The notes below the pieces were generated by a model. The model saw nothing but the letters and a program-made list of their open reading frames with translations, had not been told where the DNA came from and did not search any database. From Sphyrna mokarran (taxonomy: Eukaryota), in the NCBI GenBank assembly GCA_024679065.1, contig JAGIQG010000014.1, positions 6,448,001 through 6,512,000 of the forward strand: DNA of 64,000 nucleotides, in the 5' to 3' direction. Each line of letters starts with the position of its first letter. Position 1 is the stretch's first letter. Positions 4,513 through 47,226 of this stretch are shown in pieces. Made by a program: the position numbers and the translations under genes.

Positions 4513-4582
4513 ATGGCCCGCCCATTAATTCTACAGGTCAATGAAGTTTTCTATCCCGTGCTGGCAGCTTTTGGTACGCCCG
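4513..4582 (+). CDS. GPR139/GPR142-like GPCR copy 1, coding exon 1 (MARPLILQVNEVFYPVLAAFGTP)
   Basis: ATG at 4513, supplies first half of TM1, ends CCCG|GTACGT phase 1; joins exon 2 in frame (G+CG = Ala; GTPANL); conserved in four copies. Confidence 0.88.
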
Positions 4583-4649
4583 GTACGTCAATTCACCGTG
4601 TTGTCTCACAGTTGCGGAGTACCGGGAATGGAGAGATATAGAAAACTGA

Positions 4650-5012
4650 TTTAAGATAGGCATCATGAGCCTTGGGTGTTCTCTGGGAAATGTGTAAATT
4701 GTCGATGATATTGATGTATTTGTTTTATCCTACAGGGACGTCGGTCCGCTTTGTATAACAAGGGGCATACACGCGATGGGACGTGAGAAGGCTGCTCTTT
4801 GATTTTTCAAGAGTAGCCTTTTGCTTCACCTGTTAGGTCCGCTGACCTGGGCCAGTGGATGGGTTAACACGACAGCTCAGTGACTATGATGTGATGGTGC
4901 GCGGTACATGGATGCGGGGCCTGTGCCTGTGGGAGTTTGCGCATTCTCCTCGTGCTGCGTTGGGTTTCTCCGGTGCACTGGTTTCCTCCCACATCCCAAA
5001 GATATGCTCTAA
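4650..5012 (+). mobile_element. CR1 3' end with embedded HE1-type V-SINE, 3' part removed by deletion (intron of copy 1)
   Basis: V-domain GGAGTTTGCGCATTCTCC...TTTCCTCCCACATCCCAAAGA; upstream part similar to 58300-58440. Confidence 0.8.
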
Positions 5013-5428
5013 GGTGATGTTAAATGTAATTAAATCGATATAGATGCAAGGAAGCTGATCCCAGATCACCCGGTTTATACAAGTCTCCGAAATCATAACT
5101 GATGCCATTTAAGGCTTGGGTTCTTTAGTTGTCGATGGTGCTGAGGAGATCTTTCCAATTAACATTCTGTAGACTGAATCTCGCGACCCTCCCCTCAACA
5201 TGTAGAAAAGAATATACTTCAGTTACTTCAACTGGGAGAACATCGCAGGTGCCTAAATATTGAGTTTATGGTGATCTATTTCAATAAATATATCACCTCT
5301 GCTATCTTGTACAATGGACTGAGTCCATGTCTATAACTGAGCAAAAGTGCATCTATTCATTTCACTGAAGTATACTGAGTGTAACCAAACTGTTTCCATG
5401 ATTTGGTTCTTCTCCATTGTTTTTACAG

Positions 5429-6360
5429 CGAATCTCGTGACCATCGTGATCCTCGCCAAAGGAAATTGCGGCCTTTCCAGATGTGTCTCTATCTACATGA
5501 TGGCCATGGCAATAGCAGATTTGTTAGTGATGCTTATCAATGTAATTTTGTACAACGTTTTGAGAAAACGTTTTCCAAATTCATTCCTCTCCTACACTGT
5601 TGTTTGCAAATTAATGATATATATGCTTTGTAATAACCTGTATATGTCAGTATGGTTTACAGTCTCATTCACGTTTGACCGATATATTGCTATATGTAGT
5701 CAGAAGTTTAAAACAATCTATTGCACCGCGAGAACAGCGGCTGCAGTTTTAACAACATCCTCAGTCCTTATCTATTTGCAGAACTTGTACGTTTGGTTTG
5801 CATTTAAACATAAAAGCATTATTAATGGTGTTCAATGGGGTGTCATCCCTAGGCAGGATTTTTATACTTCTCAAATTGGTGATGCAGTTGTCTTGTTACA
5901 AAGTATTTTATTGAACTTGATTCCCTTCAGTTTGATATTGTTATTTAATTTTTTGACAGTCAGAAGGATTTTGTTGTCCAGCAAAGCGCGTGCCGGCTTG
6001 AGGGGTCATAACAGTGAGAATCAGAATGATCCAGAGATACAGAAACGAAAGAAGTCCATTATTTTATTGTTCACTATTTCTAGTAGCTTTATATTGTTGT
6101 GGGCGACAAGAGCCATTAGTTATCTAGCCAGTCGGATGCTTGTTTATGTCCGGTCGGATTACACATCTGCAGCGTATATCGCCACCGAAACCGGAACGCT
6201 GCTCATTCATTTAAGTTCATGCACGAACACGTGCATTTATGCAGCTACACAAGATAAATTCAGGGAAGAGCTAAAGAACATGGTGAAATTCCCTTGGACC
6301 ATAATTCTGATGTTGCAAAAACATGTGAAATTAAACCTCGTCTTCCTGTTCAGGCAGTAG
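5429..6360 (+). CDS. GPR139/GPR142-like GPCR copy 1, exon 2 (full protein 333 aa)
   Basis: Pyrimidine tract + TTTTACAG acceptor; MAIADLLV (TM2), FTFDRYIAIC (DRY), RKKSIILLF (TM6), SSCTNTCIY (TM7), KFREEL (helix 8); intact to TAG. Confidence 0.93.
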
Positions 6361-6644
6361 TGAAGTACATGCTTGAATGTCGGCCTTCCTGCAACAAAAA
6401 TATAACGTGTTTCTTTAAATAAGGGACTCTAGAAGGGCTGGGCCATTCTTTGTTGTATCTTCTCATGCCTACTGCTATTCATCAGTAAGTTTTGGTGTTT
6501 CCTTCTGTAGCGGCTTACTCCAATCAGTGTGCAATCAGTGAAAATACGAATTATATCATTCAACAGTGGAGTAAAACGAGTTCGCATCAGTCCTAACTAC
6601 CGTACACTGTACGCAAAGTCTTCCACCGCATGTTCTACGTACAT

Positions 6645-8550
6645 CGCAGGTACTGCCTTGCAGCGCATCTATTGCCTTACATTGTAGGTGCTATCTTAAA
6701 CTATAGGAACTGCGTTGCACCATAGCTACTGTCTGCACCGCAGGTACTGACTACACTACAGGTGCAACATTACTCAGCAGGTATTGCTCACACCACAGGG
6801 GTTTTCTTATACTTTCTCCGAAGACTCACTGTAGATGCAGCCTCAAACCCGATGAACCACCTTCCAGCACAGGTGATGTATTGCACGGCAGGAATCGTCC
6901 TGCACTGCAGGAATCGTCCTGCACTGCAGGAAATACCTTGAAATCACACTACTGCCTTATGCGGCGACTTCTGCCTGATCCCGCAGCACTACCTTACACG
7001 TCACTGCCTTACATCGCAGGCAATGCATACACCACATTTTCTCCCTTAAACCGCAGTGACTGCCTTATACCACATACTGCCTTACGACACAGGTACCACA
7101 TTACACCGCAGGCATTACCTTGAACCGCGGACGCTGCATTGCACCACTGATGCGGCCTTGAATCAAAGATGCTGTTTCACACTTGAACTACTTCTTTACA
7201 CAACAGGTACACCGCAGGCAACTGCTTACTCAGTTCATTATATTAAAAGCACAGTCTTGCACCACGCGTTCCGGCTTACGCACAGGCGATCCACCGCAGC
7301 ACAGCTACTGCCATTCCTCTCATGTTCTTCCTTATAGAACAGATATGTCCTACACCGATCGTTCTGCCTTACACCGTAGACACTGCCTTTCACCAAAGTT
7401 TCTGGTTACAGCACAATTGCTGTCGAGCTCCGCACCCAATGTCTCAAACCACAGGTTCTCCTTGAAAACACATTCGCTCTCTTCCAGCACAATACTAACT
7501 TGAATCAAAGGTACTACCTTGAACCACTGATACCGCAGTGTACAACAGTTTTGACACGGAGGCTACTTCATTGCAAAAACGATACCGCCTTACGCCAGAA
7601 ATTTTATTGCGCAACAGATACTGCCTTGCACTACAGCTAATGATTTGCACAACAGATATTGCAGGTTCTTATGCCACAGGTTCTGCCTTACACTGCAGGT
7701 ACTCACTGACTCTAAAGGAACTAACTCACACTGCATACGTTGCTTAAAACCGCAGTGTCTATGTAAACCATAGATACTGTCCTGAACTTCAGAAGCTGCA
7801 TTACACAACAGGATTTAAACTGAAGCTACTTTCTGACACCATATGTATCATCTTTCATTGTAGGTGCTGCGTTCTACCTCAAGTTTTTTTTTATTTACAC
7901 TCCACTGCAGCAATGGCATGGCTTTCACCATAAGTATGCCTTCAACGTAGTCGCTGCCTTCATTGTAAGTACTGCCCTCCACCACATGTACTATTTCATA
8001 CCGCAGCTATTTTATACGCTTTCAAAGCGTATATTGTCTTTACTCCAGGAACTGCATTACAGTGCAGTAACGACACCAGTGATACTACCTTACACCGCGG
8101 GGAATGACTTCATCTCAGACACTTCCTTACATAAAGGCACTGCCGTCACCAGCACAGTGTAAAAGGCCTTTCATTGAGGCCTTACTCCACAGCTTTCGCC
8201 TTTCACGACAAGTACTTCCACAGGCTACAGGTACTTTCTTCACTGCAGGAATTGGTTTGCAGCACAGTTGTTGCCTTACACCTTAGTTGCTATCTACACC
8301 AAGCTGATGTTTTAAACCACAGCTGTTGCCTTACATCTTAGATGTTGTGTTACATTGAATCTACTTCCTTACAACATACTGCCGCTTTACATCGTAGGTA
8401 ATGCCCTGCACTGCAAGCACAACATAGCTCCACAGCTACTGCCTTACACCATAGATGCTCCCTTACAAAGCGGTTACTGTCTTATACCGCAGCTGCTACC
8501 TTAAACCACAAGTTTTGTGTTCTGACAGTTATACACTTTGCACCTCAAGG
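6645..8550 (+). repeat. Degenerate 19-bp minisatellite, block A (consensus ~TACTGCCTTACACCACAGG)
   Basis: 19-nt register visible, e.g. from 7076: TACTGCCTTACGACACAGG TACCACATTACACCGCAGG CATTACCTTGAACCGCGGA. Confidence 0.88.
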
Positions 8551-9411
8551 AACGTTTAATAATGCACAAATGACACTATTGTTCTTTAAGAAATGCAATT
8601 TAATCATGTTCTCTGCAGTAAGAAGCTGGCATTGAGCCGCCTCCTAAATGTCATTTAATTGTTCTTAACTTATTAAATTGTTTATTTATTTATTTTCAAT
8701 CTAGCGTAATGCATTCTTATGGAGTTTATGGCAATTTTGGAACTGCTGGGGGCAGATTTTTTGACAGGGCAAGCGGAAGAGTTTTATTTTTTCCTCGCAG
8801 AAATTCTTTCGCTTTCAGCTTCGCTTGCTGGTTTGTTAGAAGTTGTTTGGATTCCAGGCTGGATGCAGTGGTTTGTCCCTACCTGGCATTAAAAATTCTG
8901 CTGGCTCGTGGAAATAGACTCTCGTACTTTTCAGCATGAACATTTTGCTGTTGGTAATTTATTAGCTGGAGGAAAGCAGTGGCACTAAATGCGCAGTGTG
9001 GGAGTCTATGAACGCAGAAGGCAGTGTTTCATTTCTCCATCCAAAGGATCTACATGGTTTGTAGAACTGAAACGGCATTGAGCATTTGCATTTTCTGTAT
9101 TAAATCGAAATTAAGTGCATATGTTAGTAAAGTATGTTATTTTGGTACGGCACATTGTGCTCTGAAGATTGACAAATCATGGTTGTTTCTGTTATTGTTT
9201 GCGATTGGTAAAAGTTACTGCTAATTTTCTTTGTGACTGTTAACTGTACTCTGGAATTAAATTTTCTGATTAAAACTCACTGGTCTGTCGTTTAATTCAT
9301 ATCTGAGGTGAAGCATCTAATGGTTATCCAAACCAAATTCAAAACGCAAAACATAAGATTTTATGACTTCATAAAAGACATGAAATTTCTTACCTGGATT
9401 ATACCCAGGCA

Positions 9412-10215
9412 AGTACTGCCTTACACCGCAGTTGTTGCGTTACAAAGACAGGGGTTGCCCTACGCACATGCACTTGCTTACATCCTAACTTCGGCCTTAC
9501 ACTATTACTGGAGCTTTTCGCCAGCGCAGGAACTGATTGTACCAAAGGTATTGTATTGCATTATACTCACATCCTTACACTGCACGCATTGCTTTACACC
9601 ACAGGTATACCTTCCAAGTCCAAATACTGTCTTCACTGTACGACATTCCTCACAGAGCAGTGAAAATGACACATAGATGGTACTGTCTTACACCGTCGGA
9701 CAATATCTCACGCCATAGATACTGCCTTCACCAGAGGAACTGCCTGCTTTTCAATAGTGTCTTATATTGCAGGTACTGCACTATATCAAATGTTTATATA
9801 ACTGGTGCCGCCTACTACAGATATGTTGCCTTGCGCCGCAGATATATCTTAAACCGCAGGAAGCGTTTCATTTTGGACCACAGATATTGCCTTACATCAC
9901 AAAGTTATACCTTCCACCACAGTTCTGCCTTGCAGATCAGTTATCCTCTGAAACTGCTGGATCAGACTTAAATCACATGTGCCTTAACTGCTTATACCTC
10001 ATACCACAGCTAATGCATTACACCACAAGTGCTACCGGACACTGCGGTTTCCTCTAAAACTGTAGCAATTGTTTCAGACCTGATACTGCTTTATTGTGTG
10101 GATTGACTTACACTACAGTTGCTGTGTAACACAGAGTTAGTGCCTTCCACTACAACTGCCGCTTTCGACCACAGGCAGCATCAGACCACAGATACTTGCA
10201 TACGGCAGATGCCAC
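9412..10215 (+). repeat. Degenerate 19-bp minisatellite, block B (unit 1)
   Basis: Same monomer resumes after a ~860-bp non-repetitive interruption. Confidence 0.85.
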
Positions 10216-12329
10216 CTGATGATTCATGTGACGTAATGTCATTTCCCCAATTCAATGCCAGTTGAAGAGCTTAAAATGAATATAATCTTCCAGTTCTTTG
10301 TCATTTGTCTCCGATCCATCAGTTCATCCATGTAGTCTGCGTTCATCTATCCTGTTGTAGTTCTTCTCGTATGCATCACCTGATTAGAATTCGTCAACAT
10401 GCATGGACCTGATATCAATTCAGAACCTGCTGAATGTCAGTAGGCGCAGTTTACCCAGATGATTAATCGCTTGGTCCGGAAGATTACATTGTTTCTGCAT
10501 TCCTGAACAGCTCATAGTCGGTAATACAGTTTGGCAGCTGCAGCAATGAAAGGGGAAATGCAGGATAGATACCAGTCAAACTTCTTCAACCCCTCTATTG
10601 GGAATAGTTTGCCAGAAAATAAAAGAATGTTTCCTGTTCAGTGTCCTACACAGGCTGACCTTCACTGCTGCTGTGCATGTTAAATTACTGAACTAGACAT
10701 GAAACAGTCAAGATGTAATTTCGGCGTTGTCATAAACAGTTGTCCCAAAACACGCTCCATCATGTGGGCAATATCGCTGTAAGAAATTATTAATATAAGG
10801 AAGAAAGTGAGTACATACGTCAAACTCAACCGGAAGACTCAGGGCTCATATACATGTGATGGCAAATTGAATAAAGGAAGGGAGTATCCATTTGTGCGAC
10901 GGGGGAGCTGTTGGCCTCGGATACAATTTACTGTTCATCTCAAATGGCCCCTGAGAGAATATTTAGCAGTCAATTAGATTCTTCTGTGGTTCGAGAAAGG
11001 AAAAAAAAAAATGACCTGAAATATGTGTGCTTCTTCCATTCGCTTCAACAGAAGCAGATAAAAGTGCAAATAAACAGGCATAAATCCTCAACTATCACTT
11101 TTCCTTCAGGAAGAGAAGTTCGCGCAGTCTCACCACAGTCATTTCAGCAGAGCGCTCCAATCCTGAAAGCGATTAAACGAAGGCACCCAAAGGTTTGAAC
11201 ATGGCGCCCGAACAGTGCACAATGGGACTTTCGTATTGATAAGACGCGGATGTGCGACGCACAACTGTAGTGTAAGTCAATCCACAGAATAAAGCGTGAT
11301 TCTGTACGGAAGTTATGACCCAATAACTTGCTCATTTTTTGTGGTTTCCTGAAATTGAAAGCAGCGCCCATGCACTGAGTAGCACATTGAACCACCAGGT
11401 TTAATGTTTTATGGCCAATTTGATGCAGCATGCCTGCCTTCACTATTTGACTAAAGGCATGAATCTCGGTTTTATTTTCATATTCCGATCTTTGGTAATT
11501 TACACTCTCCAGCGCATTTGCTCTCACACTTCATTTTAGAAGTCGTCTGACTTTCACCTTGCCAGTAGTGTATGACGCGACATTTGCTGTTACCCATTGT
11601 CTGCACTGCTTCTTCAGCGGATTGGAAGATTGCATTAATTTTGGGGAAACAAAGAACCAGAGACGGATTGTTTGTGTCAGAAAGGGTTTTATTTGATGTT
11701 CGATGGGTTTGAGTGTCAATGCAGTAAACTGTGCTCTAAATTGAGTGAATCATAAGAGGTAGAAGTGTAAGTCGGTAGATCAATCCGAGTCTTAATCAAA
11801 TAAATTTCACTATTTATCCCTCCCGAGTCTTCCATATCTCACGCACAGTAACATAAATTGTTGCGTCCTTTATCACAGTTCTTGCGGCAACCATTCAACA
11901 CTTTGACTCTGCATTTGCAAAAACCTGCAACAAAAAGATCATAGTAAGTATGAATCTGGTGCAGCACATAACGGATCAAAACAGTTGAGTAGTGGTAGAC
12001 GACAGGTAAAAGAGATTTCCAAAAAACGTCACGGAACGCAAGCCAAAGGGAATTTTGATGATAGCATTAACGTTCACTTTAGCAGTGCAATGTAAGAAAC
12101 TGTGAATCGGAAGAAAGGTTAGAAATTTATGAAAGCAAAACATAAGAACGAAGGATAGATGTATTTGCGGAGGAGGTGCAACATTGGAACCAAACTGATT
12201 CAAAAAGGGAGGATAACTAACAAATTTGATACTAACGGACTATGGGCCTCCAGAAGTTTTATGCAGCATTTCCTGTCTTTCTCGATGTCGCTGTTTTGAT
12301 TTGACGCCTTGCTTAGAACAAATTCAAAA

Positions 12330-12402
12330 AGGCACCGCTGAAATTTGAACTCAGGATGCCCTGTTTACGAGGCAAGCGCTTTGACCAAGTAAGCAATTGC
12401 AG
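12330..12402 (-). pseudogene. tRNA-Thr-derived pseudogene, CGT at anticodon position
   Basis: Reverse complement ...TGGTCAAAGCGCTTGCCT-CGT-AAACAGGGCATCCTGAGTTCAAATTTCAGCGGTGCC then a T run; 5' acceptor strand does not pair. Confidence 0.75.
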
Positions 12403-12789
12403 TTGCCGTTGCGCCGGAAGAGCTTCGGACTGCTTGGACGTTTTCATTCATTAATGGCACTGTGAAGACATCAGTGGAATTATAAAATTGTCAGAGATTG
12501 GTTTAACGAATTGCAAAATTATTGAATATGCGATTTGTCGTTGTAAAGTGTGATCCCATCTATTCTTTGTCACTCTTTCCCATGTAATGTTAAGTAACAT
12601 CAATCAATCGATTCTGTATTGAAAAAAAACAGAAAATGATGAAAAAAATTCTCTTCGACGATCAGTAACCAATGAACTCCCATGAGATCAGTGCTGGGTC
12701 CCCAATTGTTTACAATACATGTTAATAACTCTGAGGTAGGAGGCGAATGCACCGCGTTCAAATTGATAGGTAACACATATTTCGGACAA

Positions 12790-14030
12790 AACTCCCATTG
12801 CGGGAATGATAAAAACATTTTTTAACTTAGCTATATTAATGAAGTGGGAAAACATTGGGCAAATATTTTATAACGTGGGAAAATATCAACCATATAGCCT
12901 CAAGAAAATGCTTTGACTATCTCAGTGAATTTGATAAACTTATCCAAGAGCATTTCAAAAGTCATCGTTATTATGCCTCAGGAAGACCAACTTTTTATTG
13001 TTGAGGGCCTATGTTAAGTTCATCACTAGTCCGACAGAGTGATTCAGAAAACATTTCACGAATGAAGTAAAAATGTTAAAAAACATTCCATATTAGTCAA
13101 TTCAACGCGACATGTGAATCGTGTATGACAAATTAACAATACTTTTGAACTATGTGGCCAACAACGCTGCAGTAGGGTAAAATATTTTGTGGCTACAATC
13201 CCATATTTTTTTGATTGTCTGGAGGTGATAATGTTTGGAATTTATTGCAAATTTTGTGGTTTACAGTTTGAAAGTTGGTACTGGTCAGAGCCTTGATGAT
13301 GCCATGGAGATGGGAGAAATCTATCCAGATTTAGAGGAGACTGAACTGTGAATTGTTCATCCCATGTTCAAATCTCTTTTTGACTTGAAACTGCAACGCT
13401 GCAATAAATCCAACTCTATATCTTCTATTGAAGTGTTCAAATAATATGTTTATTTTTCCGTTTCCATACATCGGTGGAATGTATTGCAATCAGTCCTGGA
13501 ACAAGCAAATTTAAAACTTTTGTCAAGAGTTTTGAATATCAGGTGGCCCGCTCGTGCATAGGTCGTTTTGACTTTGAAAATGAACTTTGTTAATATGAAA
13601 GAAGTCTTTTCAAAGAAATCAAATTAAAAAGAGAGAAAGTTGAACAAAATTTTTAGCAGAGAAATTTGAAATATATGATACTGCTGTTTTTAATGTTTCG
13701 TGGAGCCACTTGCTTCAAAAAATTAATGCCACCAGAAAACCATTGCTAAAGATTGATGCAACTTCACTGAATGTTTCAGAATTGTTCGCATCAGTTAAGA
13801 GTATTTTCATGCGTGTTCAAAATGATTACAACTCAGTGGAAGCAGAGGTACACTAACGCTAGCAAGAAAAAAAAATACATGACCTTTGGATGACGAAAAG
13901 CACGCAAGCACAGGAAGTCAGTTTTTTTGATGAAACTAGAAACAATGGCACCGTTTTCAGAATGAAAATAAAAGGTCATCATTGAGACTATCAATGTTAC
14001 TTGCGACCAAAGAATGATTAAATTGCAGAA
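12790..14030 (+). mobile_element. Fossil hAT transposase, unit 2 copy
   Basis: Collinear with 1390-2620. Confidence 0.7.
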
Positions 14031-15918
14031 TTGCAGAACCTCTGAAGAAAACTGTACACTTATCTTTGTGAATTTCGACAGATGTTGGGATGATTATACC
14101 AAAGACTACTGAAGTGAGACCGCAGTATTGAATATTCTTCTTGGCATCCTCAGATGAAGTAAGTGTGGATTTCAATTCAGCAATTACAGGCATGATTTTT
14201 GGAAGTAAAAAAAAACACGAAAGCAGTTCACCAGCAATGAACTTGCATAATATTGTGAACTGTGCTTTTCTGTCCTGTGGACGATGGAGGACGGCTCATG
14301 ACGTCAATGGAATTATGGGCATGATGTAATTGAGGCGGGGTTGGAGGCTGATGTCAAGGTGAGCAATCCTTTTTCTTCATTATGGGATGGGGACACTGCT
14401 GGTAGTAGTCATAATTCACCATTAATCCCAAATCGCCCTTAAGAGAGCAGTTAGAGTCAAGTAGGTTGCTATATATCGGGACCAGCATGCAGGCGACTGT
14501 GGGTGAGGATGACATGTTTCTTTCCCCATTGGCGTAAGTAAAACCGACAAGTATTTATAACAATTCATTCATGGTGATCACAGGAATTTTTTAAATGACG
14601 ATTTGTAATTCTACACTCTGATGACAATTCACACCCAGAACTCCACAATATACGTTTTATGTCAGATGTTACAACTGGGTTTCAATGCTTCGAAGCCAAC
14701 CATCTTTGCTGCCTCAACAAACGTCACAGAATCAAGGCACACGACAAATTCTCAGTCACACAGGTACTCGGAAGCTTCAGTCTGGTCAGGATTTTCTCAA
14801 TATTTTTAGCAAAACTGTTCTGATGAGTTGATGCAATCGCCAGAATGCCAGACAACTGATTTCATCTCAAATCTTCGGCGCCGAACTGAAGAATAGACTA
14901 CGCTTCAGTGGCGCACAAAAGACATGTTTCAAGGGAACTTTGCAAGTTATCATCTAAGACAACAAAGATTTGCTCAAATTAAATACTAGCCAAGTGATCA
15001 GGGGAGGCTTCTGCAAAATCAATTTCAATGGATGACACATCATGTCCACACGGCAAGGGACTATTTTCATCGTTTATTGATTGACTGAAATCTCAAATAG
15101 GTAAAATATATCAACGCACTCTGAAGTTTTCTTTGCAGCTCGGTTGCATTGAGATCTATCGCCAGCAGAAGCTTGCTGCCACTCGTTCAGAGTGATGCAA
15201 CGTGTCCATCAAGCTGTGTCAAGCTCTAGGTCTCAAATTCTTACTGGTACGTCAGAGGAACCATAAAGAATGTTACAAAGCCTAATCTATATTTCACGGT
15301 TAGGCAAGGGACACCCTGAAATAGTATCACTTCAAGTAATGATTCATTAGCTCATTATATTTAAGTTCAATTAACATTGATAATGATCGATTAACACGAA
15401 TGGTAAATTTGTAGTTTAGTTCCTACAACTTAGATTGTAGCAAAGACACTGGAAAGTAAGATAATTGTGACAAATAATAACAGCTATTCATTATTACTTA
15501 TCACAATGCACATCAAATGAAGTTATGGACATAGGAGTGAAATACACGTGAGCTGTACATTAGATACATGGTTTAAATAAGTGAATGATGAAGCTGACAG
15601 AATCAAAGATTGGGTCCATGGGGATGGTTCATTCTGTCTTCTGCGAGCCAGCGCAGAACACATGTGCTGTGGGATTCCTTCCTGATCACTCATGTTAATT
15701 GACGGAGCTTCATGGACTAACAAGTTTGTCGATTGGCCAACCCGGATTCCCTCCAGAGGAAAGGGATTTTTTGATTTAATTTGCTAAAGTGACTCAATTA
15801 GTGCGTAGCCTGATTTTTTCCCCTCAGGGAATGTATTACAGTACAAAAGGCGACAGTCTAGCAATCTTTCACACAACGGTGCATCGAGCGAAACATTTGC
15901 ATTCTTCGCGAAATCACC

Positions 15919-15988
15919 ATGGCCCGCCCATTAATTCTACAGATCAATGAACTTTTCTATCATGTGCTGGCAGCTTTTGGTACCCCCG
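15919..15988 (+). CDS. GPR139/GPR142-like GPCR copy 2, coding exon 1 (MARPLILQINELFYHVLAAFGTP)
   Basis: CACCATGG start context; donor CCG|GTAAGT, phase 1. Confidence 0.88.
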
Positions 15989-16049
15989 GTAAGTCAATGC
16001 ATCGTGTTGTCTCATAGTTGCGGTGTACCGGGAATGGAGCGATATAGAA

Positions 16050-26836: not shown

Positions 26837-26844
26837 AATATATC

Positions 26845-34223: not shown

Positions 34224-34494
34224 AGTAAATGTTTAAATGCCGGCCTTCCTGCAACAAAAAGATAATGTGTTTCTTTAAATTAGGGACTCTAGAAGGACTG
34301 GCCCATTCTTTGTTGTATCTTCTGATGCCTACTGCTATTCGTCAGTAAGCATTGGTGTTTCTTCCTGTAGCGCCTTACTCCAATCAGTGTGCACAGATAA
34401 TACGAATGATATCATTCAACAGTGGAGTAAAATGGGTTTGCATCAGTCCTAACTACGGTACAGTGTACGCAAAGTCTTACGCCGCATGTTCCAC

Positions 34495-36460
34495 ATCGCA
34501 GGTATTGCCTTGCAGCGAATCTATTGGCTTACAGAGTTGCTGGTATCTTACACTGCAGTACTAGCTTAAACTACAGGAACTGCGTTGCACCATAGCTACT
34601 GCCTACACCGCAGGTACTGACTACACTACAGGTGCAACATTACACAACAGGTATTGCTCATACCACTGGGACTATCTTATACTTTCTCCGCAGGCTCACC
34701 GCAGATACAGTCTTAAACCAGGTGTATCACCTTCCAAGCCAGGTGATTTATTGCATGACAGGAATCGTCCTGCACTGCAGGCACTACGCTGAATCACACT
34801 ACTGCCTTATGCTGTGATTTCTGCCTGATATCTCACCACTACCTTACACATCACTGCCTTACATCGCAGGCAATGCATTCACCACAGTTTCTTCCTTAAA
34901 TCACACTGGCTGCCTTGTACCACATACTGCCTTACACCACAGGTACCACTTTACACGGCATATATTACCTTGAACCGCGCACGCTGCATTACACCACAGA
35001 TGCGGCGTGCACAACAGATGCTGTTTTTTCACTTAAACTACTTCCTTACACAACAGGTACAGCAGGTACACAGCAGCTAGTGCCGGGAACCGGAGACACT
35101 GCATTAACAGTGCAAGCACTGTCTTGCAAAACTGGTTCTGTCTTACGCACAGGCGATGCACCCCATCACAGATACTGCCATTCCTCTCATGTTCTTCCTT
35201 ATAGAGCACCGGTGTTCCTTATCTTACACCGATCGTTCTGCCTTACACCGCAGATACTGCCTTACACCACAGTTTCTGGTTACAGAACCGTTTCTGTCTA
35301 ACTCCGCAGCCAATGTCTCACACCACAGGTTCTCCTTGACAACACATTCTCTTTCTTACACCACAATACTAACTTGAACCAAATGTATTACCTTGAACCA
35401 CTGATACCGCATTGTACAACAGTTTTTACACCGAAGCTACTTTCTTGCAAACACAATACCCCCTTACGCCACGGAATTTTATGGCACACCAGATACTTCC
35501 TTCCACTACAACTAATGATTTGCGCAAGAGATATTACAGCTACTGCCTTATGCCACAGGTTCTGATTACGCTGCAGCTACTCACTGACTCTAAACGGACT
35601 AACTCACACTGCATGCGTTGCTTAAAACCGCAGTGCCTATGTAAACCATAGATACTGCCTGGAATTTCAGAAGCTGCATTACACCACAGGATTTAAACTG
35701 AAGCTACTTTCTTACACCATATGCATCACCTTTCACTGAAAGCGCTGCCTTATACCACAAGTACTTTTTTTACATCGCCGCAGACTCTTTACACTGCACT
35801 TCAGCAATACTATGCCTTCCACCATAAGTATGCCTTCAGCGTAGTAGCTACCTTCATTGTGAGTATTGCCCTCCACCACATGTACTACATTACACTGCAG
35901 GCACTACCTTTCAAAGCATATATTGCCTTTACTCCAGAAACTGCATTACAGCGCAGTTACTACACTAATGGTACTATCTTACACCACGAGGGATGACTTC
36001 ATCTCAGACGCTTCCTAACACAAAGGTACTGTCTTCACCAGTGATTGATGGCGCAGGATAGAAGGTCTTTCATTGAGGTACTGCCTTACTCCACAGCTTT
36101 TGCTTTTCATAGGCTGTAGATACTTTCTTCACTGCGGGAATTGGTTTCACCACAGTAGTTGTCGTGCAGCACAGTTATTGCCTTACACCTCAGTTGCTAT
36201 CTACACCACAGCTGATGTCTTAAACCATAGATGTTGCCTTACATCATAGATGTTGTCTTACACTGAATCTATTTCCTTACAACATAGCTACCGCTTTACA
36301 CCGTAGGTAATGCCCTGCACTGCAAGCACAACATAGCTCCACAGCTACTGCCTTACACCATAGATGCTCCCTTACAAAGCGGTTACTGTTTTATACCGCA
36401 GCTGCTACCTTAAACCACAAGTTTTGTGTTCTGCCACCGATGCCACTTTGCACCTCAAGG
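34495..36460 (+). repeat. 19-bp minisatellite block A, unit 3
   Basis: Collinear with the other copies. Confidence 0.85.
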
Positions 36461-37340
36461 AACGTTTGCACAAGTGACGCTCTTGTGCTTTAAGGAATGC
36501 AATTTAATCATGTTTTCTGCAGTAATAAGCTGGCCCTGAGCCTACTCCGAAATGCGATTTAATTGCTCCTTAAATTATTAAATGGTTTATTTATTTATTT
36601 TCAATCTAGGCCTAATGCATTCTCATGAAGATTATGGCAATTTTGGAATTGCTGGGGCAGATTTTTGACAGGGCAAGCGGAAGAGTTTTACTTTTTCCTC
36701 GCAGGAATTCTTTCACTTTCAGTTTCGCTTAATGGTTTGTTAGAAATTGTCTGGACTCCAGGCTGGATGCAGTGGTTTGTCCGTACCTGGTATTAAAAAT
36801 TCTGCTGGCTATTTGATGTTTACTTTCATAATTTTCAGCATGAACATTTTGCTGTTGATGGTTTATTAGCTGGAGGAAAGCAGTGGCACTATATGCACAG
36901 TGTGGGAGCCTCAGAATGCAGAAGGCAGTTTTTCATTTCTCCATCCAAAGGATTAACGAACACGGTTTGCAGAGCTGAAACATCATTGAGCATTTATATT
37001 TTCTGTGTTAAATCGAAATTAGGTGCATTTGTTAGTAAGTATGTTATGTTGGTACGGCACATTGTGCTATGAAGATTGACAAATCATGGTTGTTTCTGTT
37101 ATTGTTTGTGATTGGTAAAAAATACTGCTAATTTTCTTTCTGTCTGTTAACTGTACTCTGGAATTAAATTTGTGAGATAAAAGCTCACCGGCCTGTCGTT
37201 TAATTCATATCTGAGGTGAAGCAACTCATGGCTTTCCGCACCAAATTCAAAATGCACAACATAAGGTTTTATGACTTCATAAAATAAGTGAAATTTCTGA
37301 CCTGGATTATACCCAGGCAAATACTGCCTTACACTGCAGT

Positions 37341-37446
37341 AAATACGGACAAGGATCACAGGCAGAAGTAGGAACATCTGGGTGGTGGCGCGGGCTCGTT
37401 GGGCCGAAGGGCCTGTTTCCCGTGCTGTTTTGTTCTTTGTTCTTTA
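37341..37446 (+). mobile_element. Short retroposon 3' tail replacing minisatellite block B
   Basis: GGCGCGGGCTCGTTGGGCCGAAGGGCCTGTTTCCCGTGCTG...(TTCTTTG)n; flanks correspond to ~9432 and ~10248 of unit 1. Confidence 0.85.
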
Positions 37447-38697
37447 TCCTTAATTCAATGCTAAATGTAAGAGTTTAAAATGCCTATAACCTTTCCATTC
37501 TTTGTCATTTGTCTCCGATCCATCAGTTCATCCAAGTAGTGTGTGTTTATCTATCCTGTTCTATTTCTTCTCCTATACAATCACTTGATCAGAAAATGTC
37601 AACATGCATTGACCTGACATCTATTCAGAACCTGGAGAATGTCAAAAGGCGCAGTTTAACCACTTGATTAACCGCTTCTTCCAGCGGTAAATTACATTGT
37701 CTTTACATTACTGAGCAGCACAAACTAGATGATATAGGTTGGCAGCTGCAGCAATGAAAGGGGAAATGCAGAATAGATACCAGTCAAACTTCTTCGACCC
37801 CTCCATCTAGAATAGCTTGCCAGAAAATAAACGAATGTTTCCTGTTCAGTATTGTGCACTGATTGACCTTCACTGAGGCTGTGCATGTTAAATTACTGAA
37901 CTAAACATGAAACAACCGAGATGTAATTTACGTGATGTTGTTTTTGTTTTCTTCCATTTGTGATATCCTTCTTCGTTCACTTTTTCAGACTCAGTAGCAA
38001 AGAATTGTCACATAAAATCAACAGTTACCAAGACGGACACTGCATCAAGGGTTAGTGTCAGAATTAACATGAAACCTATATAAAATATAGCTTTCCATAC
38101 ACACATATAAGCTTCAGAAAAGGAAACATAATTTTTGATAACTTCTGAAAAGCAAGTGATTTGTCAAACACAATTTTAATTGACAGGGATGAAAAAGGAG
38201 ACTAGCAATATTTATAACAAAACAATTTGCTGAATTACAATTCAGTATGTAACATGTTACAATCAGCGTGTTGATTTTGCATTTGCGAAAGCCTGCAACA
38301 AAAACAAAATAATAAGTATAAATCTGCTGCAGCAAATAACGGGTCAAAAGAGATGTACAGTGGTAGATGACAGCTGACAGATTTCCCAAATACATCACAG
38401 AACGCAAGCCAAAGGGAATTTTGATGATATCATTAAAGTTCATTTCTGCAGTGCAATGTAAGAAACTGTGTGAATCGGAAGAAAGGTTGGAAGTTTATGA
38501 AAGCAAAACATAAGGACATAGGAGAGATGTATTTGCGGAGGACGTGCAACATTGGAACCAAACTGATTCAAAAAGGGAGGATAACTAACAAATTTGATAC
38601 TAACAGAGTATGGGCCTCCAGAAGTTTTATACAGCATTTCCTGTCTTTCTCGATGTCGCTGTTTTGATTTGACGCCATGCTTCGAACAAATTCAAAA

Positions 38698-38770
38698 AGG
38701 CACCGCTGAGATTTGAACTCAGGATGCCCTGTTTACAAACAAGGGCTTTGACCAACTAAGAAATTTGCAG
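38698..38770 (-). pseudogene. tRNA-Thr-derived pseudogene, TGT-like anticodon with 1-nt shorter arm
   Basis: Reverse complement ...AAAGCCCTTGTTTGTAAACAGGGCATCCTGAGTTCAAATCTCAGCGGTGCC then a T run. Confidence 0.7.
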
Positions 38771-39959
38771 TTGCTGTTGCGACAGAAAAGCTTCAGACTG
38801 CTTTGAGGTTTGCATTTATTAATGACACCTATGGTATTGTGAAAACGTCCATGGAAGAATAAAATAGTCAGAAATTGGTTTCACGAATTGCAAAGTTATT
38901 GAATATGCGGTTTGTCGTTGTAAAGTGCTATCCCATCTATTCTTTGTCACTCTTTCCTTTGTAATGTCAAGTAACATCAATCAATCGATTCTGTATGTAA
39001 AAAAAAAACAGAAAACAATGAAAAATATCTGGCGATTCGACGAAAAGTGGACACGTAAACTTGGTTCTCTTAAGAGATGCTGTCAGGCCTGATACGATTT
39101 CTGAGCATGCTCTACAATTGCTTCAGATTGCAGCGTCTGCAATATTTTGCCCTTACTGCTCAATTTGTTCACTTGTGCTCAGCAGTGGGCGCCAATAATT
39201 CAAAGCGCTTCCATAAGCATCACCATCCCAAGGCACTAATGATCCAGTCTGGTTGTTTTATGGTGGAATATCAGTCCAGAATTTTAGTTCGACTTCGTTA
39301 GTTTGATTTAAACTTCAAAACAGCGGTCTTTGTGTATTTTCTGGTTTTTCTTTACCGATTTAGGCTTTTGGCACTTTTTTTCTGTATTAAAAAAAACAAA
39401 GAACAAAGAAATTTGCGGCACAGAAACGCAGCTCACCCACCCTGCACCGACCATGCATAGATAACCCTATAGGTTAATGCACTGATGCATCCAAAATCTA
39501 TTTCCAAATATCACAACTACTAACAAGGTTAATGTATTTCGAGAGGAACTGAAGATTAAATAAGAATCTAATTCTTCAGTTACACAGCACAATGGCAAGA
39601 AGCACATTCCGAATATAGTGTGTTATTTGATTATTTGAGACTGATATTTCTTTTTAGGGAAGAATTCAAGGCTCGTTTTCAACGTTTTAACGCAGAAGGC
39701 GTCCGACAAGTTCAACTCACACAAGGTTGAGTCATAAGATAAAGCTCATGGTATTCGTGTCAGCAAACCATGGATAGAGGGTTGGCTAATGGGGAGGAAA
39801 CAACGACTTGGGATAAGGGTTTCCTTTTCTCTTTGGCGATCAGTAACCAATGAACTCCCATGGGGATCAGTGCTGGGGCCGCAATTGTTTACAATTCATG
39901 TTAATAACTCAGAGGTAGGAGGCGAATGCACCGCATTCAAGTTGATAGGGAACAATATA

Positions 39960-41215
39960 TAGGACAAAACTTTGATTGCGAGAATGATAAAAACATTTTA
40001 CAACTTGGATATATTAATGAAGTGGGAAAACATTTCGCAAATATTTTATAACGTGGGAAAATGTCAGCCATATAGCGTCAAGAAAATGTTTTGAATATCT
40101 CAGTGAATTTGTTAAACTGATCAAAGAGCATTTCAAAAGTCATCGCTACTGCACCTTAGGAAGACCAACGTTTTATTGTTGAGGGCCTATGCTAAGTTCG
40201 TCACTAGTCTGACAGAGTGATTCAGAAAACATTTCACGAATGAAGTAGAAAATGTTAAAAAGCATTCCATATTAGTTAATTCAACACGAGATATGAATCG
40301 TGTTTGACAAATTAACGGTACGTTTGAGCTATGTGGCAAACAACGCTGCAGTGGGATGAAATATTTTGCAGCTACAATTCCATATTTTTGATTGTCTGGA
40401 GGTAATGATGATTGGAATTCATTGCAAATATTGTGGTTTACAGTTTGAAAGTTCGTAGTGCTCAGAGCCTTGATGATGCCATGAAGATGGCAGGATTCTG
40501 TCCAGATCGAGACAAGATTGAACAATGCAAGACCCTGGGAATTGTTCATCCCTTGTTCCAATCTTTTTTTGACTTGAAACTGCAACGCTGCAATAAATCC
40601 AGATCTGTATCTTCTATTGAAGTGTTCAAATAATATATTTTTTTTCGGTTTTCGTACATCAGTGGAATGTATTGCAATCAGTCCTGGAACAAGCAAATTT
40701 AAAAGTTTTTCAAGAGTTTTGAATATCAGGTGGCCCGCTCGTGCATCGGTCGTTTTGACTTTGAAAATGAACTTTGTTGATGGGAAAGAAGTCTTTTCAG
40801 ACAAATCTGCATCAAATTAAAAACAGTGAAAGTTGAACAAAATTTTTAGCAGAGAAATTTGAAATGTATGATACTGCTGTTTCTCATGTTTTATGGAGCC
40901 ATTTGCTTCAAAAAATTAATGCCACCAGAAAACCGTTGCTAAAGGTTGATGCAACTTCACTGAATGTTTCAGAATTGTTAGCATCAGTTCAGAATATTGT
41001 CATGCGTGTTCAAAATGATTACAGCTCAATGGAAGCAGAGGTACACTAACATTAGCAAAAAAAAAATCATGCCCTTCGGATGATGAAAAGCACGCAAGAC
41101 ACAGGAGGTCATTTTTTTGATGAAACTAGAGACAATGACACCGTTTTCAGAAAGGAAATAAAAGATCATCATTGACATTATCAATGTTACTTGTGACCAA
41201 AGAATGATGAAATTG
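39960..41215 (+). mobile_element. Fossil hAT transposase, unit 4 copy
   Basis: ORFs 40617..40820 (NIRWPARASVVLTLKMNF) and 40864..41049 are remnants. Confidence 0.72.
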
Positions 41216-41753
41216 CAGAATAGAATGAACCCCTGAAGAAAACTGCAGTCCTATCTTTGTGCGTTTCGATAAATGTTTGGATGAGAAAATCAAAGTCTAT
41301 AGAAGTAAGATCGCAGTGTAGAATATTCTTCTTCGCATCCTCAGATGAAGTAAGTGTCGATTTCAATTCAGCAATTACAGGCATGATTTTTAGAAATTAA
41401 AAAAAGAAGCACGAAAGCAGTTCAACAGCAATGAACTCTCATACTATTGTGAACTGTGTTTCTCTGTCCTCTGGACGAAGGAGGACGGGGCATGACGTCA
41501 CTGGAATGATGGGCATGATGTAATTGAGGCGGGGTTGGAGGCTGATGTCAAGGTGAGCAATCCTTTTTCTTCAGTTTTGGGATGGGGACGCTGCTGGTAG
41601 AAGTCATAATTCACTCTTAATCTCAAATAGTCCTTACGAGCGCAGTTAGAGTCAAATAGGTTGCTGTATACCTGGACAGGCATGCAGACGACAGTAGGTG
41701 AGGATGGCATGTTTCCTTCCCCATTGGCGCAAGGGAAACCGCCAGGTATTTAT

Positions 41754-41977
41754 AGAACATAGAACATTACAGCACAGAACAGGCCCTTCGGCCTTCGATG
41801 TTGCGCCGACCAATATAAAAAGCAATGCCCGTCCAAACTAAACCATTCCCTTCTCTTCCATATACTTATCAACTAACCTCTTAAACGCCACCAAACTTGG
41901 CGCATCTACAACTGCTGCAGGCAGGGCATTCCACTCCCGAACCACCCTTTGGGTAAAGAACCTACCTCTGATATCCG
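41754..41977 (-). mobile_element. Young CR1 3' fragment, unit 4 specific
   Basis: Nearly identical to 25995-26219; (TTCTATG)n tail; absent in units 1-3. Confidence 0.9.
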
Positions 41978-43298
41978 ACTTGTAATTCTGCACCATGATG
42001 ACAATTCACAACCAGAACTCCACAATATACGTTTTATGTCAGAATTTTCCGACTGGGTTTCAATGCTTCAAAGCCAACTACCTTTGCTGCCTCAACAAAC
42101 GTCACAGAATCAAGACACAGGACAAATTCTCAGACACTCATGTACTCGGAAGATCCAGTCTAGTCAGGATTTTCTCAATGTTATTGGGAAAACTGTTGTG
42201 ATGAGTTGATGCAATCGCCAGAATACCGGACAACTGATTTCATCTGAAATCTTCGGTGCCGAACTGAAGAACAGAGTACGCTTCAGTGGCGCACAAAATA
42301 AATGTTTCAAGGGAACTTTGCAAGTTATCATCCAAGACAACAAACATTTGCTCAACTTAAATACTGGCCAAGTGAACAGGGGAGACTTCTGCAAAAACGA
42401 TTTCAATGGATGAAATATCGTGTCCACACGGCAAGGAAATATTTTCATCGCTTATTGATTGACTGAAATCTTAAACAGGTAAAATATATCAACCTACTCT
42501 GAAATTTTCTTTGCAGCTCGGTTGCATTGAGGTCCATCGCCAGCAGTAGCTTGCTGCTACTCGTTCAGAGTGATGCAACATGTCCATCAAGCTGTGTCAA
42601 GCTCTAGGTCTCAAATTCTTACTGGTGCGTCAGAGAGAAGGTAAAGAATGCTACAAAAACTAATGTATATTTCACGGTTAGGCAAGGGACACTCTGAAAT
42701 AGTATCACTTCAAGTAATGATTCATGAGCTCATACATATTTAAGTTCAATTAGCATTGATAATGATAGATTAACACTAATGGTAAATTTGTAGTTTAATT
42801 CCTACAATTGAGATTGTAGTAAAGACACTGGAAAGTAAGATAATTGTTACAAATAATAACGGCTATTCATCACTAATTAACACAATGCACATCAAATGAA
42901 AAGTTATGGACACAGGAGCGAAATACACGTGAGCTGTACATTAGATGCATGGTTTAAATAAGTGCATGATGAAGCTGACAGAATCAAACATTGTGTCCGT
43001 GGGGATGATCTATTCTGTGTTATGCGAGCCAGCGCAGAACATATGTGCTGTGGGATTCATTTCTGATCACTCCTGTTAATTGGCAGAGCTTCATGGACTG
43101 ACAGTGTGTCGATTGGCCAACCCGGATTCCCTCCAGAGGAAAGGGATTTTTTGATTTAATTTGCTGAAAGTGACGCAATTACTGCGTAGCCTGATTTTTC
43201 CCCTCAAGGAATGTATTACAGTACAAAAGGCGACAGTTTAGGAATCTTTCACACAACGGTGCATCGAGCGAAACGTTTGCATTCTTCTCGAAATCATA

Positions 43299-43368
43299 AT
43301 GGCCCGCCCATTAATTCTACAGATCAATGATTTTTTCTATCCCGTGCTGGCAGCTTTTGGTACCCCCG
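43299..43368 (+). CDS. GPR139/GPR142-like GPCR copy 4, coding exon 1 (MARPLILQINDFFYPVLAAFGTP)
   Basis: ATG 43299; donor CCG|GTAAGT, phase 1. Confidence 0.88.
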
Positions 43369-43427
43369 GTAAGTCAATGCATCATGTTGTCTCATATTTG
43401 CGGAGTACCGGTTTTGGAGCGATATAG

Positions 43428-43984
43428 AAAACTAATTTAAAATAGGTATCATGAGCCTTGGGAGTTGCCTGGAAATTGTCTATATTGTCGATGATATTGA
43501 TGTATTTGTTTTGTCGACAGGTACTTCGGTCCGCCTTGTATAAGAAGGGGCACATCCGCGAAGGGCCTGAGAGGGCTGCTCTTGGATTTTTGGAGAGTAG
43601 CCTATTGCTTCACATTGTTAGTGTATGCTTGACCTGGACCAGTTGATGGGCAACACGGCAGCTCAGTGACTATTGCTGTGCTGCGCAGATACATGGATTT
43701 GTGCCTGTGCCTGTGGGAGTTTGCGCATTCTCCCCGTGCTTGCGTGGGTTTTCTCCCGGTGCTCCGGTCTCCTCCCACATCCCAAAGATGTGCTCTTCGG
43801 GTAATTGGCAAAACAAATTCTCCATAAATTGTCTCAAATTTGGTTCTAATGCATAAATCGATAAACATAGATAGAGATCACAGGAATCATAGGTAGAAGT
43901 GGGAACATCGAGGTGGCCGCGCGGGCTCGTTTGGCTGAAGAGCTTGTTTCCAGGGATGTTTTGTTTTTTGTTCTTTGTTCTTTG
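43428..43984 (+). mobile_element. CR1 3' end with embedded V-SINE (intron of copy 4)
   Basis: Homologous to 30425-30982. Confidence 0.85.
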
Positions 43985-46294
43985 CACCTCACTTCTCACT
44001 GATTCAGCAAACGGATTGCGAGAAGATCATTACTGCAATGTCTTTTCTCTGCCGAAGTAAATTGTTGAATATCAGTGAGAGTCTCAACGGTTGGCATGGA
44101 CTGTGAGCCGCGGTTCAGCTAAGAAGAGTGTGACACCTGAAGGTTAAATTCCCTCCCCACATTTAGGGAGATGGAGGCAGATTCCATTCTCTTCCGACAG
44201 TTCATAGGTCTGTATGCGATTTATTTCCAGTGACAATCTGTATGGTTTAAGGTGACAATACCTCGAAATACAGCCTCTCCTGGAAGCAAAATCATTGGAA
44301 TGTATTTCAAGGAAAAAGAAAACCTGTTCAGGAGGCTGTTGCTCTCCTCAAGGTTGTAATTCAGTTCCCTTGTTTCCCTTTCTGTGTCCGACAGCTTCTT
44401 TCCGCTGATGATAAACGTTAGAATCCCACTGTTTCGAATTACTTTCAATAACTATTTTCTCGTCTCACTGTTTTATTTGAAGGACTATTTTTATTTACAT
44501 AGCGAGTAAATATTACGGTTAGCCCTCCTGATATTGGATGCAGCTCTTGAAAGTAAACTTAAGACGCTAAGTTCAACGGATTGCCCCACCGTGCCGCCGC
44601 GCTCTCTTATACAATTGGTCGGTGCATCACCTGACACAAGCCTCGTGGTGGATGGATTGAGTTGTCAAAGTTGCAGCACAGCGAATTACTGTAAAGAAAT
44701 GAATCATTTGTTTGGTAGCATTTATTTTATTTTATTTGTGTGATGTGGGCATCCATGTCCTTTATTTTTCATTCTTCGCTGCTGTTCGGATACAGGTGGT
44801 GAGTTGCTTCCCTGATTCGTTGCTGGGCAAGTTGTAAGTGCACCCACGGTGCTGGTAGAAGAAAAGAGAGTTCCAAGATTTTGACACAATTATAGTCTAG
44901 GAACAACGATATATTTTCCACTCAGTTCGTTAGTGACTTTGTGACAACATTAAGATGGCGGTGTTCCTACATATTCTCTGCCCGTTACTTTTTAGATGAT
45001 AGTGGTCGACGGTTTGGTATAATGCTGTTTAAAGTGCCTGGTAAGTTCTTGTAAATGCTGCTTACGGCTGCTATAGCGCGTCTGCGGTAGAGGTAGTTAA
45101 CATTTTGTGGGAGGGTTCGCAATCCAACTGCCTGCTTCGTCGTTCATTGTCTAGAACATCTTGAGGGTCTTGGGAGCTTCCTTCGGGCAGGATAGTGACT
45201 CACAAACAGAGCACAGGATTTTGGGAGACAAGCGGTCTCTTATTCACCGCAGGGTTCCAAACCGCTGATCTGCTTTTGTGGACATTATTTATTTGGTAAA
45301 ATTACCCAAATACAGTGGATGCTGAAATCTGAAATAAAGTAGGGAATACTAGAAAAATCGCCGACTATTTTCTTCGCCACCGAAGCTGTCAGCCCTGCTG
45401 AGATTTCATATGAAAAAAGTACATTTTTCATATGGCTCGCACAGTTCAGGTAGTGTTTATGGTTGATGCTAATAGTTGCGGACTCAATGATGGCATTGAA
45501 CGTCAAGAGGAAATTTTTAAATTATGTATTGTTGTAAGTGGTCATTCCCTGAAATTTGCGTGACACAGCCATTACTTCCCACTCGTCAGCCCAAATCTGG
45601 ATGTTATCCAGATCTTGCTGCATTTGGACACTGGCTGCCTCGGTATCTGAAGACTCAAACCTGATGCTATACGTTGTGCAGCCATCAATAATCATTCCCA
45701 ATTCTGACCTTATATTGGAATAATATAGAAGAACCTGGAGAAGTTTGAGCCTAGGATACTCACTGAGGAAATGACAAAATGTACAATTTACTGAGCAAAT
45801 TCTGAGGACTTCCTTTAGGGCACGCGGCATGAGGTTTGATTGCAACTTAGAGTGAATGAAGTCTCCGACCAGTGTCAGGAGTGATACTTAATATAATTAA
45901 ATCGATATAGATGCAAGGAAGTAGATCCCAGATCACCCACTTTATACAAGTCTCCGAAATCATAACTGATGCCATTTGAGAATTGGGTTCTTTAATTGTC
46001 AATGGTGCTGAGGGGTACTCTCCATTAACTTTCTGTCGACTGAATCTGGGGCCCCACCCCTCAACATGTGGAAAAGATTATACTTCAGTTATTGCAACTG
46101 GGAGAACATGGCAGGTGCGTAAATATTGCGTTTATGGTGATCTATTTCAATGAATATATCACCTCTGCTCGCTTGTACAATAGACTGAGTCCATGTCTAT
46201 AACTGAGCAAAAGTGCATCCAAACATTTCACTAAAGTATACTGAGTGTAACCAGACTGTTTTCATTACTTGGCTCTTTTCCCTCGTTTTTACAG

Positions 46295-47226
46295 CGAATC
46301 TCGTGACCATCGTGATCCTCGCCAAAGGAAATTGCGGCCTTTCCAGATGTGTCTCTATCTACATGGTGGCCATGGCAACCGCAGATTTGTTAGTGATGCT
46401 CATCAATGTAATTTTGTATTATATTCTGAGAAAACGTTTTCCAAATTCATTCCTCTCCTATACTGTTGTTTGCAAATTAATGATATATATGCTTTGTAAT
46501 AACCTGTATATGTCAGTATGGTTTACAGTCTCATTCACGTTTGACCGATATATTGCTATATGTAGTCAGAAGTTTAAAACAATCTATTGCACCGCGAGAA
46601 CGGCGGCTGCAGTTTTAACAACATCTTCAGTCCTTATCTATTTGCAAAACTTGCACGTTTGGTTTGCATTTGAACATAAAAGCATTATTAATGGTGTTCA
46701 ATGGGGTGTCCTCCCCAGTCAGGATTTTTATACTTCTCAAATTGGTGCTGCAGTTGTCTTGTTACAAAGTATCTTATTGAACTGGATTCCCTTCATTTTG
46801 ATATTACTGTTTAATTTTTTGACAATCAGAAGGATTTTGTTGTCCAGCAAAGCCCGCGCGGGCCTGCGGGGTCAAAACAGTGAGAATCAGAATGATCCAG
46901 AGATACAGAGCCGAAGGAAGTCCATTATTTTATTGTTCACTATTTCTAGTAGCTTCCTGTTGTTGTGGGCGACTAGAGTCATTAGTTATCTAGCCAGTCG
47001 GATGCTTGTTTATGTCCGTCCGGATTACACATCTGCTGCAAATATCGCTGCCGAAACCGGAACACTGCTCATTCATTTGAGTTCATGCACGAACACATGC
47101 ATTTATGGAGCTACACAAGCTAAATTCAGGGAAGAGCTAAAGAAGATCGTGAAATTTCCTTGGACAATAATTCTGATGTTGCAAAAATATGTAAAATTAA
47201 ACCTCATCATCTTGTTCAGGCAGTGA
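46295..47226 (+). CDS. GPR139/GPR142-like GPCR copy 4, exon 2
   Basis: Acceptor AG ends 46294; intact 7TM frame to TGA; intron 2926 bp. Confidence 0.93.

Follow-up and report, generated by a model that had tools for sequence, protein, structure and literature searches.

What are the four receptor genes that lie in tandem in a 64,000-nucleotide stretch of the Sphyrna mokarran genome (GenBank assembly GCA_024679065.1, contig JAGIQG010000014.1, G000:C446:6448001-6512000)? This whole stretch is called the window below. A preliminary description had called the genes GPR139/142-like orphan receptors. They belong instead to a large expansion of receptors of a known class that is real and apparently undescribed. 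By sequence comparison, this family was shown to descend from the lineage of a single-copy vertebrate orphan and not from GPR139 or GPR142.

Each of the four copies has a 70-bp exon 1 and a 932-bp exon 2 (Table 1). Together these form a 1002-bp coding sequence for a stop-free protein of 333 amino acids (aa). All four exon junctions, with GT donors and AG acceptors in the window DNA, were re-derived at the coordinates of the preliminary description, along with the intact frames and the 333-aa seven-transmembrane (7TM) proteins. Its length for exon 1 is right. Its make-up of an ATG, 23 codons, and a G is not, as the exon holds 23 codons, ATG counted, plus one base. The exon had also been called hidden, but it is not hidden in the databases. 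A short matching N-terminus was found in 69 of 120 listed relatives, which backs exon 1 by homology, and exactly 23 residues precede the junction in 63 of these 69. The two-exon models of the four copies are confirmed as homology-backed predictions. The very short N-terminus without an N-glycosylation sequon was also borne out, and sequons are absent from the whole length of all four proteins. The array does contain four intact genes. However, the exon 1 of a fifth, more distant gene and the size of the family had been overlooked. The exon 2 of the fifth gene lies at G000:C446:6515784, 3.8 kb past the window end, and is open and 55% identical to copy 1.

The four proteins are confirmed, by sequence and by a structural model, as class A (rhodopsin-like) G-protein-coupled receptors (GPCRs). 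Copies 1 and 4 match the Pfam family 7tm_1 (PF00001) with 62.9 and 59.9 bits (cut-off 30.5), and copy 1 has an additional weak match to 7TM_GPCR_Srw. There was no Pfam match to the olfactory receptor (OR), TAAR, V1R, V2R, or T2R profiles at an E-value of 0.001. AlphaFold modelled copy 1 exon 2 as a seven-helix bundle with a mean predicted local distance difference test score (pLDDT) of 80.8. A fold search with this model matched class A peptide receptors and did not tell GPR139 apart from the others (7VUG was at rank 18). The closest solved structure by sequence is human GPR139 (E 2e-11). The class A core residues N1.50, D2.50, R3.50, P5.50, and Y7.53 are kept in all 58 family proteins. P6.50 and P7.50 are mostly lost, being present in only eight and four of the 58, respectively. 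C3.25 is present in 57 and the cysteine of the second extracellular loop (ECL2) in 53; copy 1 is without the latter. In the subclade of the window copies, the ECL2 cysteine (residue 162) is lost, C3.25 is kept, and there is an extra cysteine at 3.33. Thus, the usual disulfide is ruled out in this subclade, unlike in the other family members.

The genome holds one true GPR139, which is 98% identical to a shark protein, and one GPR142. The exon 1 of this GPR139 was found by pattern just past the first 80 kb searched. Identity between the family and this GPR139 is only 24-33%. Closer relatives, namely proteins of coelacanth, anchovy, lamprey, and amphioxus, came from a profile search of 50% cluster representatives. 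The coelacanth protein scored 210 bits on the family profile and 113 on the GPR139/142 profile. Its gene is called X1 here, and a second single-copy orphan is called X2. A phase-1 intron just before N1.50 is present in GPR139, GPR142, X1, X2, and all 58 sampled family loci, which supports common descent with GPR139 and GPR142.

A tree was built with an IQ-TREE mixture model from 43 rows chosen out of an 83-row FastTree set. The family forms one clade (100/100), which is joined by X1 (95/93), then by X2 and the lamprey member (98/93), and then by amphioxus (96/91). GPR139 and GPR142 together are sister to all of these (95/86). A constraint that united the family with GPR139 and GPR142 was rejected (approximately unbiased (AU) test, p = 0.008). 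The family stem is long (0.96), so its exact sister is less certain than its exclusion from GPR139/142. Deep branches within the family are common to sharks and rays. The assignment to GPR139/142 therefore holds only in part. GPR139 is the closest solved structure and the intron position is shared, but in the strict sense the family falls outside the GPR139/142 clade, a placement that the preliminary description had named as counting against it.

The next-closest outgroup consists of protostome receptors of the FMRFamide/MIP/proctolin type, relatives of 7TM_GPCR_Srw, to which copy 1 has its weak match. These differ from the family in their longer N-termini and known peptide ligands, and their rows in the tree are mostly unnamed proteins.

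Orthologues of X1, among the best 120 of 145 hits listed, come from sharks, sturgeon, teleosts, amphibians, turtles, and squamates, and no mammal or bird is named among those 120. X1 is single-copy in this genome (G000:C805:46.80 Mb; L102 / L172) with 63% identity, and the family comes next at 28-36%. Its exon 1 has 24 codons. Two database entries for X1 are labelled as TMEM183A isoforms, which suggests that X1 adjoins TMEM183A. X2 (G000:C1104:25.01 Mb; L103 / L173) groups with the anchovy and lamprey proteins. The lamprey protein carries a long repeat-rich insert in ECL2. Passages of Rinne et al. (2019; PMC6504862) name 'GPR210A', 'GPR210B', and a third subtype beside GPR139/142 in bony vertebrates, and a table in a review has a row 'Orphan 139-like' (PMC5207463). 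Judged by tree position and taxa, X1 and X2 are probably these receptors. Like the family, GPR210A/B and 'Orphan 139-like' are orphans next to GPR139/142 in non-mammalian vertebrates. X1 and X2, which fit the GPR210 description, are the closest relatives of the family, and X1 shares its intron. However, they are single-copy with a fixed pocket, and the papers cover bony vertebrates and mention no expansion in the passages concerned.

How large is the family? When the genome was searched with copy 1, 2,460 first-look candidates came up, of which 128 were scored, and every one of these was 44-100% identical. A single motif pattern for the seventh transmembrane helix (TM7) was found at 686 places in the genome, compared to two for the reversed control, so that at least 686 loci bear the motif. 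Judged by eye, this pattern catches 35 of 43 loci near the window and nine of 24 more distant family proteins. These catch rates suggest a total of roughly 850-1,800 loci, a rough estimate that takes in pseudogenes and any doubly assembled copies and rests on two biased sensitivity samples. The 664 kb around the window contain 43 family loci. Of these, 37 possess an acceptor and an exon 2 that stays open over 289 aa or more, and the other six are broken. Exon 1 was located for 36 of the 37 open loci. A second sample consisted of 58 loci from other clusters that were chosen as stop-free. Every one carries the acceptor, and a search over 8.9 kb located exon 1 in 31. It was not found within that distance for the other 27 or for X2, which is likely due to longer introns or divergence. 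In two loci, L119 and L126, the N-terminal coding stretch seems to extend further upstream than the usual exon 1 and to include short repeats there.

Family loci are spread over many contigs, and dead copies sit beside live genes. The birth-and-death family that had been proposed thus finds support and is far bigger than four genes. It is not lineage-specific, as had also been proposed, but common to sharks and rays. Among the best 120 of 654 database relatives listed, all are from sharks and rays, and they are 52-65% identical save two (46 and 49%). Their automatic name is mostly 'probable G-protein coupled receptor 139'. ESM Atlas matches fall into chordate clusters labelled 'probable GPR139' and into invertebrate 7TM clusters, and the taxa are resolved no further.

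The window copies are confirmed, from sequence comparison, to be under purifying selection. The ratio of replacement to silent substitution rates (dN/dS) is 0.21-0.25 in five of the six pairs and 0.47 for copies 3 and 4, the closest pair with 10 differences. Coding DNA of the four copies diverges by 1.3-6.5% and the flanks by 4-12%; a coding divergence of 5.1% compares with 8.3-9.8% in the flanks. The preliminary description had pointed to intact frames amid indel-rich duplicated DNA. This agrees with pairs 1-2 and 3-4, which have no coding gaps compared to 29 gaps in 6,730 aligned bases of flank and intron, where 8.6 coding gaps would be expected (P about 2e-4). The other four pairs have one gap each when these equal-length sequences are aligned with free end gaps. 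These single gaps are probably an alignment artefact near the end.

The divergence between the four copies indicates that they are not duplicates of each other, and their origin as assembly duplicates of one another was ruled out. For copies 2-4, no twin above 96% identity was found in the examined region. Copy 1 is a different case. Its intron is without about 2.1 kb that is found in copy 2, with the joint at about 5014-5018. A 35-kb block has an inverted twin of 99.85% identity (G000:C446:6418053-6453018 and 6794005-6759034). The block ends at a 100-base scaffold gap on one side and at window position 5018 on the other, which coincides with the intron deletion. Copy 1 may thus carry a real deletion, be a recombinant, or contain a local misjoin. 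In any case, its reading frame and splice sites are undamaged. There is also a 30-kb inverted twin of 99.3% (G000:C446:6572963-6603287 and 6636563-6606194) and an 11-kb twin nearby of 99.6%. The 35-kb and 30-kb twins each touch or flank a scaffold gap. The large inverted twins are either real palindromes or haplotype duplicates, and part of the cluster may have been assembled twice.

The ligand pocket was predicted as 27 positions picked from generic class A numbering. The entropy at these positions is 2.59 bits in 58 family proteins, compared to 1.35 at other TM positions (p = 2e-8). In 18 orthologues of the single-copy sister X1, the pocket has 0.59 bits and other TM positions have 0.80. Across 23 distinct intact genes of the subclade, dN/dS is 0.41. 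The outer half has 187.5 replacement and 105.5 silent changes, and the inner half has 118 and 126 (Fisher p = 3e-4). The replacement changes of the outer half are mostly in ECL2 and in the third extracellular loop (ECL3). Positive selection as an established fact was dropped, as no pooled dN/dS exceeded 1.

According to PMC5430874, four residues are needed for the activation of GPR139: F3x33, H5x43, W6x48, and N7x38. Copy 1 has C, Q, W, and T at these positions. Only W6.48 is retained, and F3.33, H5.43, and N7.38 are replaced in the family. The tryptophan/phenylalanine (Trp/Phe) pocket is thus mostly not kept in the window copies. They do keep R6.51 and an acidic residue at 7.36, which are fixed in the single-copy relatives and variable in the family. 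In addition to the intron, these two residues and the lack of proline at 7.50 are likenesses to GPR139 and GPR142 (PDB 7VUG and 9M42), which are class A orphans activated by Trp/Phe. The differences are the separate clade, the presence here of GPR139 and GPR142 as single-copy genes of their own, and C3.25, which the family has and they do not.

A pocket that is variable in the family and fixed in its single-copy sister is consistent with a repertoire of chemoreceptors. About 44 OR genes are ascribed to these animals. From such sequence features, the family is most likely a repertoire for sensing, and the chances appear about even that it serves external chemosensation, mainly smell. It resembles OR, TAAR, V1R/ORA, V2R/OlfC, and T2R in its tandem clusters, birth and death, nearly intronless 7TM region, short N-terminus, and variable pocket. 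It differs in having no Pfam match to them and an independent origin. A stronger claim is put forward more tentatively and falls somewhat short of an even chance. It holds that, in sharks and rays, the GPR139-like orphan lineage gave rise to an olfactory receptor family that has gone unrecognised. This family would have roughly a thousand genes and be more than 10 times the size of all their known olfactory families together.

Such a repertoire would arise as unequal crossing-over and inverted segmental duplication multiply units of 11-14 kb and supply new receptor genes. Selection would hold the signalling core and let the outer pocket change, and some copies would die. A short promoter directly upstream of exon 1 may drive expression in sensory cells, most likely olfactory neurons. 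A ligand from outside would then activate the G protein by way of the conserved D2.50, R3.50, N7.49, and Y7.53. Each receptor is predicted to bind different small molecules or peptides. The four window copies, which differ by 2-9%, would probably overlap in specificity. As a guess, their ligand could be amino-acid-like or a peptide, because R6.51 and the acidic 7.36 of the ancestral receptors are kept. The Trp/Phe profile of GPR139 is not.

To explore the promoters, consensus motifs were sought in the 300 bp before the start codon. Promoters unrelated to one another, in 28 groups, were compared with 50 control stretches. A TATA box is present in 17 of the 28 groups (12 of 50 controls), mostly 60-105 bp upstream, a placement that probably makes exon 1 the true first exon. 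A strict Olf/EBF (O/E)-type site is present in five groups and in none of the controls (p = 0.005). With one mismatch allowed, the counts are nine and five. O/E and homeodomain sites are typical of mouse odorant receptor promoters (PMC5318403). Taken together, the promoter sites lend weak backing to olfactory expression. By eye, a recurring element that we take to be bZIP (C/EBP-ATF)-like was observed about 35-45 bp upstream of the TATA box in nine loci (L118, L122, L124, L134, L140, L144, L163, L164, and L165). Between it and the TATA box in the same loci is a palindrome, presumably O/E- or AP-2-like.

Several points weigh against an olfactory role. The promoter signal, from a trial of six motifs, is modest. 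None of the 28 promoter groups has the canonical O/E palindrome, and the homeodomain core (21 of 28 and 27 of 50, p = 0.055) is not significantly enriched. Both a strict O/E site and a canonical TATA box are missing from the promoter of copy 1. EBF factors are also active in B cells, and immune and somatosensory receptor families also show variable pockets and tandem arrays. No pooled region has a dN/dS above 1. As the highest value is 0.75, relaxed constraint could account for the variation. Mouse odorant receptor promoters are usually without a TATA box (PMC5318403). In a catshark brain-plus-olfactory library, no GPCR is among the 50 most specific genes given in PMC11979771. This last point is weak, since known V2Rs are missing there too.

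Immune or barrier surveillance would be one other role. By analogy with mammalian formyl-peptide and Mas-related receptors, the proteins would be leukocyte or epithelial receptors for microbial or damage-derived peptides and metabolites. Birth and death of genes and a variable pocket would be expected of such receptors too, and EBF1 in B cells could read the O/E-type sites. However, 700 or more genes far exceeds the known immune GPCR families, and this role is considered unlikely even though related protostome receptors are peptide receptors (PMC12208981). Internal sensing outside the nose is just as doubtful. The receptors would then be found in gut endocrine cells, somatosensory ganglia, electrosensory organs, or gonad, and would detect nutrients, irritants, or reproductive cues. 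The nearest studied relatives do sense amino acids inside the body (PMC5430874), and the window copies have R6.51 and acidic 7.36 in common with GPR139, GPR142, and the single-copy sisters. R6.51, however, is present in only five of 58 family proteins, and internal ligands would rarely call for hundreds of receptors with differing pockets.

It is very improbable that an unstable region was merely amplified, for the most part neutrally, and that assembly duplication swelled the gene counts. The inverted twins agree with this reading, the 35-kb one having its ends at a scaffold gap and at window 5018. The divergence of the four copies, the purifying selection, the family loci on many contigs and in many other species, and the deep branches common to sharks and rays do not. 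It is hardly credible that the genes are additional copies of a GPR139-type Trp/Phe receptor, retained for dosage. The automatic label, the best match among solved structures, and the shared intron might suggest this, but gene dosage was rejected on the low identity to shark GPR139, the failed monophyly with GPR139/142, and the change of three of the four key agonist residues.

Table 1. Positions of the receptor genes and related features in the window.
Feature	Position	Strand	Details
Copy 1 exon 1	4513..4582	+	70 bp: start codon, short N-terminus, first half of TM1; phase-1 donor
Copy 1 intron	4583..5428	+	846 bp
Copy 1 exon 2	5429..6360	+	Remainder of TM1 through stop
Copy 2 exon 1	15919..15988	+	
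Copy 2 exon 2	18937..19868	+	Intron 2,948 bp
Copy 3 exon 1	30295..30364	+	
Copy 3 exon 2	33292..34223	+	Intron 2,927 bp
Copy 4 exon 1	43299..43368	+	
Copy 4 exon 2	46295..47226	+	Intron 2,926 bp
Four tandem duplication units	1264..49802	+	11-14 kb each, DNA 86-95% identical, one gene per unit
Exon 1 of fifth, more distant family gene	62338..62407	+	GC-type donor; TATA box about 80 bp upstream

Other features are also present in the window. A near-complete open reading frame (ORF) 2 of a long interspersed nuclear element (LINE), encoding endonuclease and reverse transcriptase, is at 55567-58451 (+) and is split across two frames near 56740. Shorter 3' pieces of similar LINE elements are on the reverse strand at 524-1498 and 26083-26553. 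Degenerate minisatellite-like DNA of 18-19 bp is found at 6400-9900, and a matching stretch is downstream of every copy. Six other long ORFs in the window had no Pfam match, and an Rfam search of the window gave no match.

No description of this expansion was found in the literature covered, which largely leaves out subscription journals. Under the terms searched, the parts of PMC11979771, PMC7677710 (the bamboo-shark genome, with no passage on GPCRs), and PMC12208981 concerned make no mention of it. Cartilaginous fishes are described as GPCR-poor (PMC8455134). Although their olfactory neurons are many, they are credited with 20-62 complete olfactory receptor genes (PMC10869828), and the catshark olfactory repertoire is dominated by about 34 V2Rs, as summarized in PMC10116579. 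Several hundred or more intact, pocket-diverse receptors under the label 'probable GPR139' conflict with the GPCR-poor view, whatever their function. If expressed in the nose, the family would change the count of 20-62 genes. If it is indeed olfactory, a vertebrate smell repertoire would have arisen independently in this family, which would explain why few receptors are known in animals with large olfactory organs. Through the single-copy sister, whose pocket is fixed, the ancestral ligand could be approached in fish or frog.

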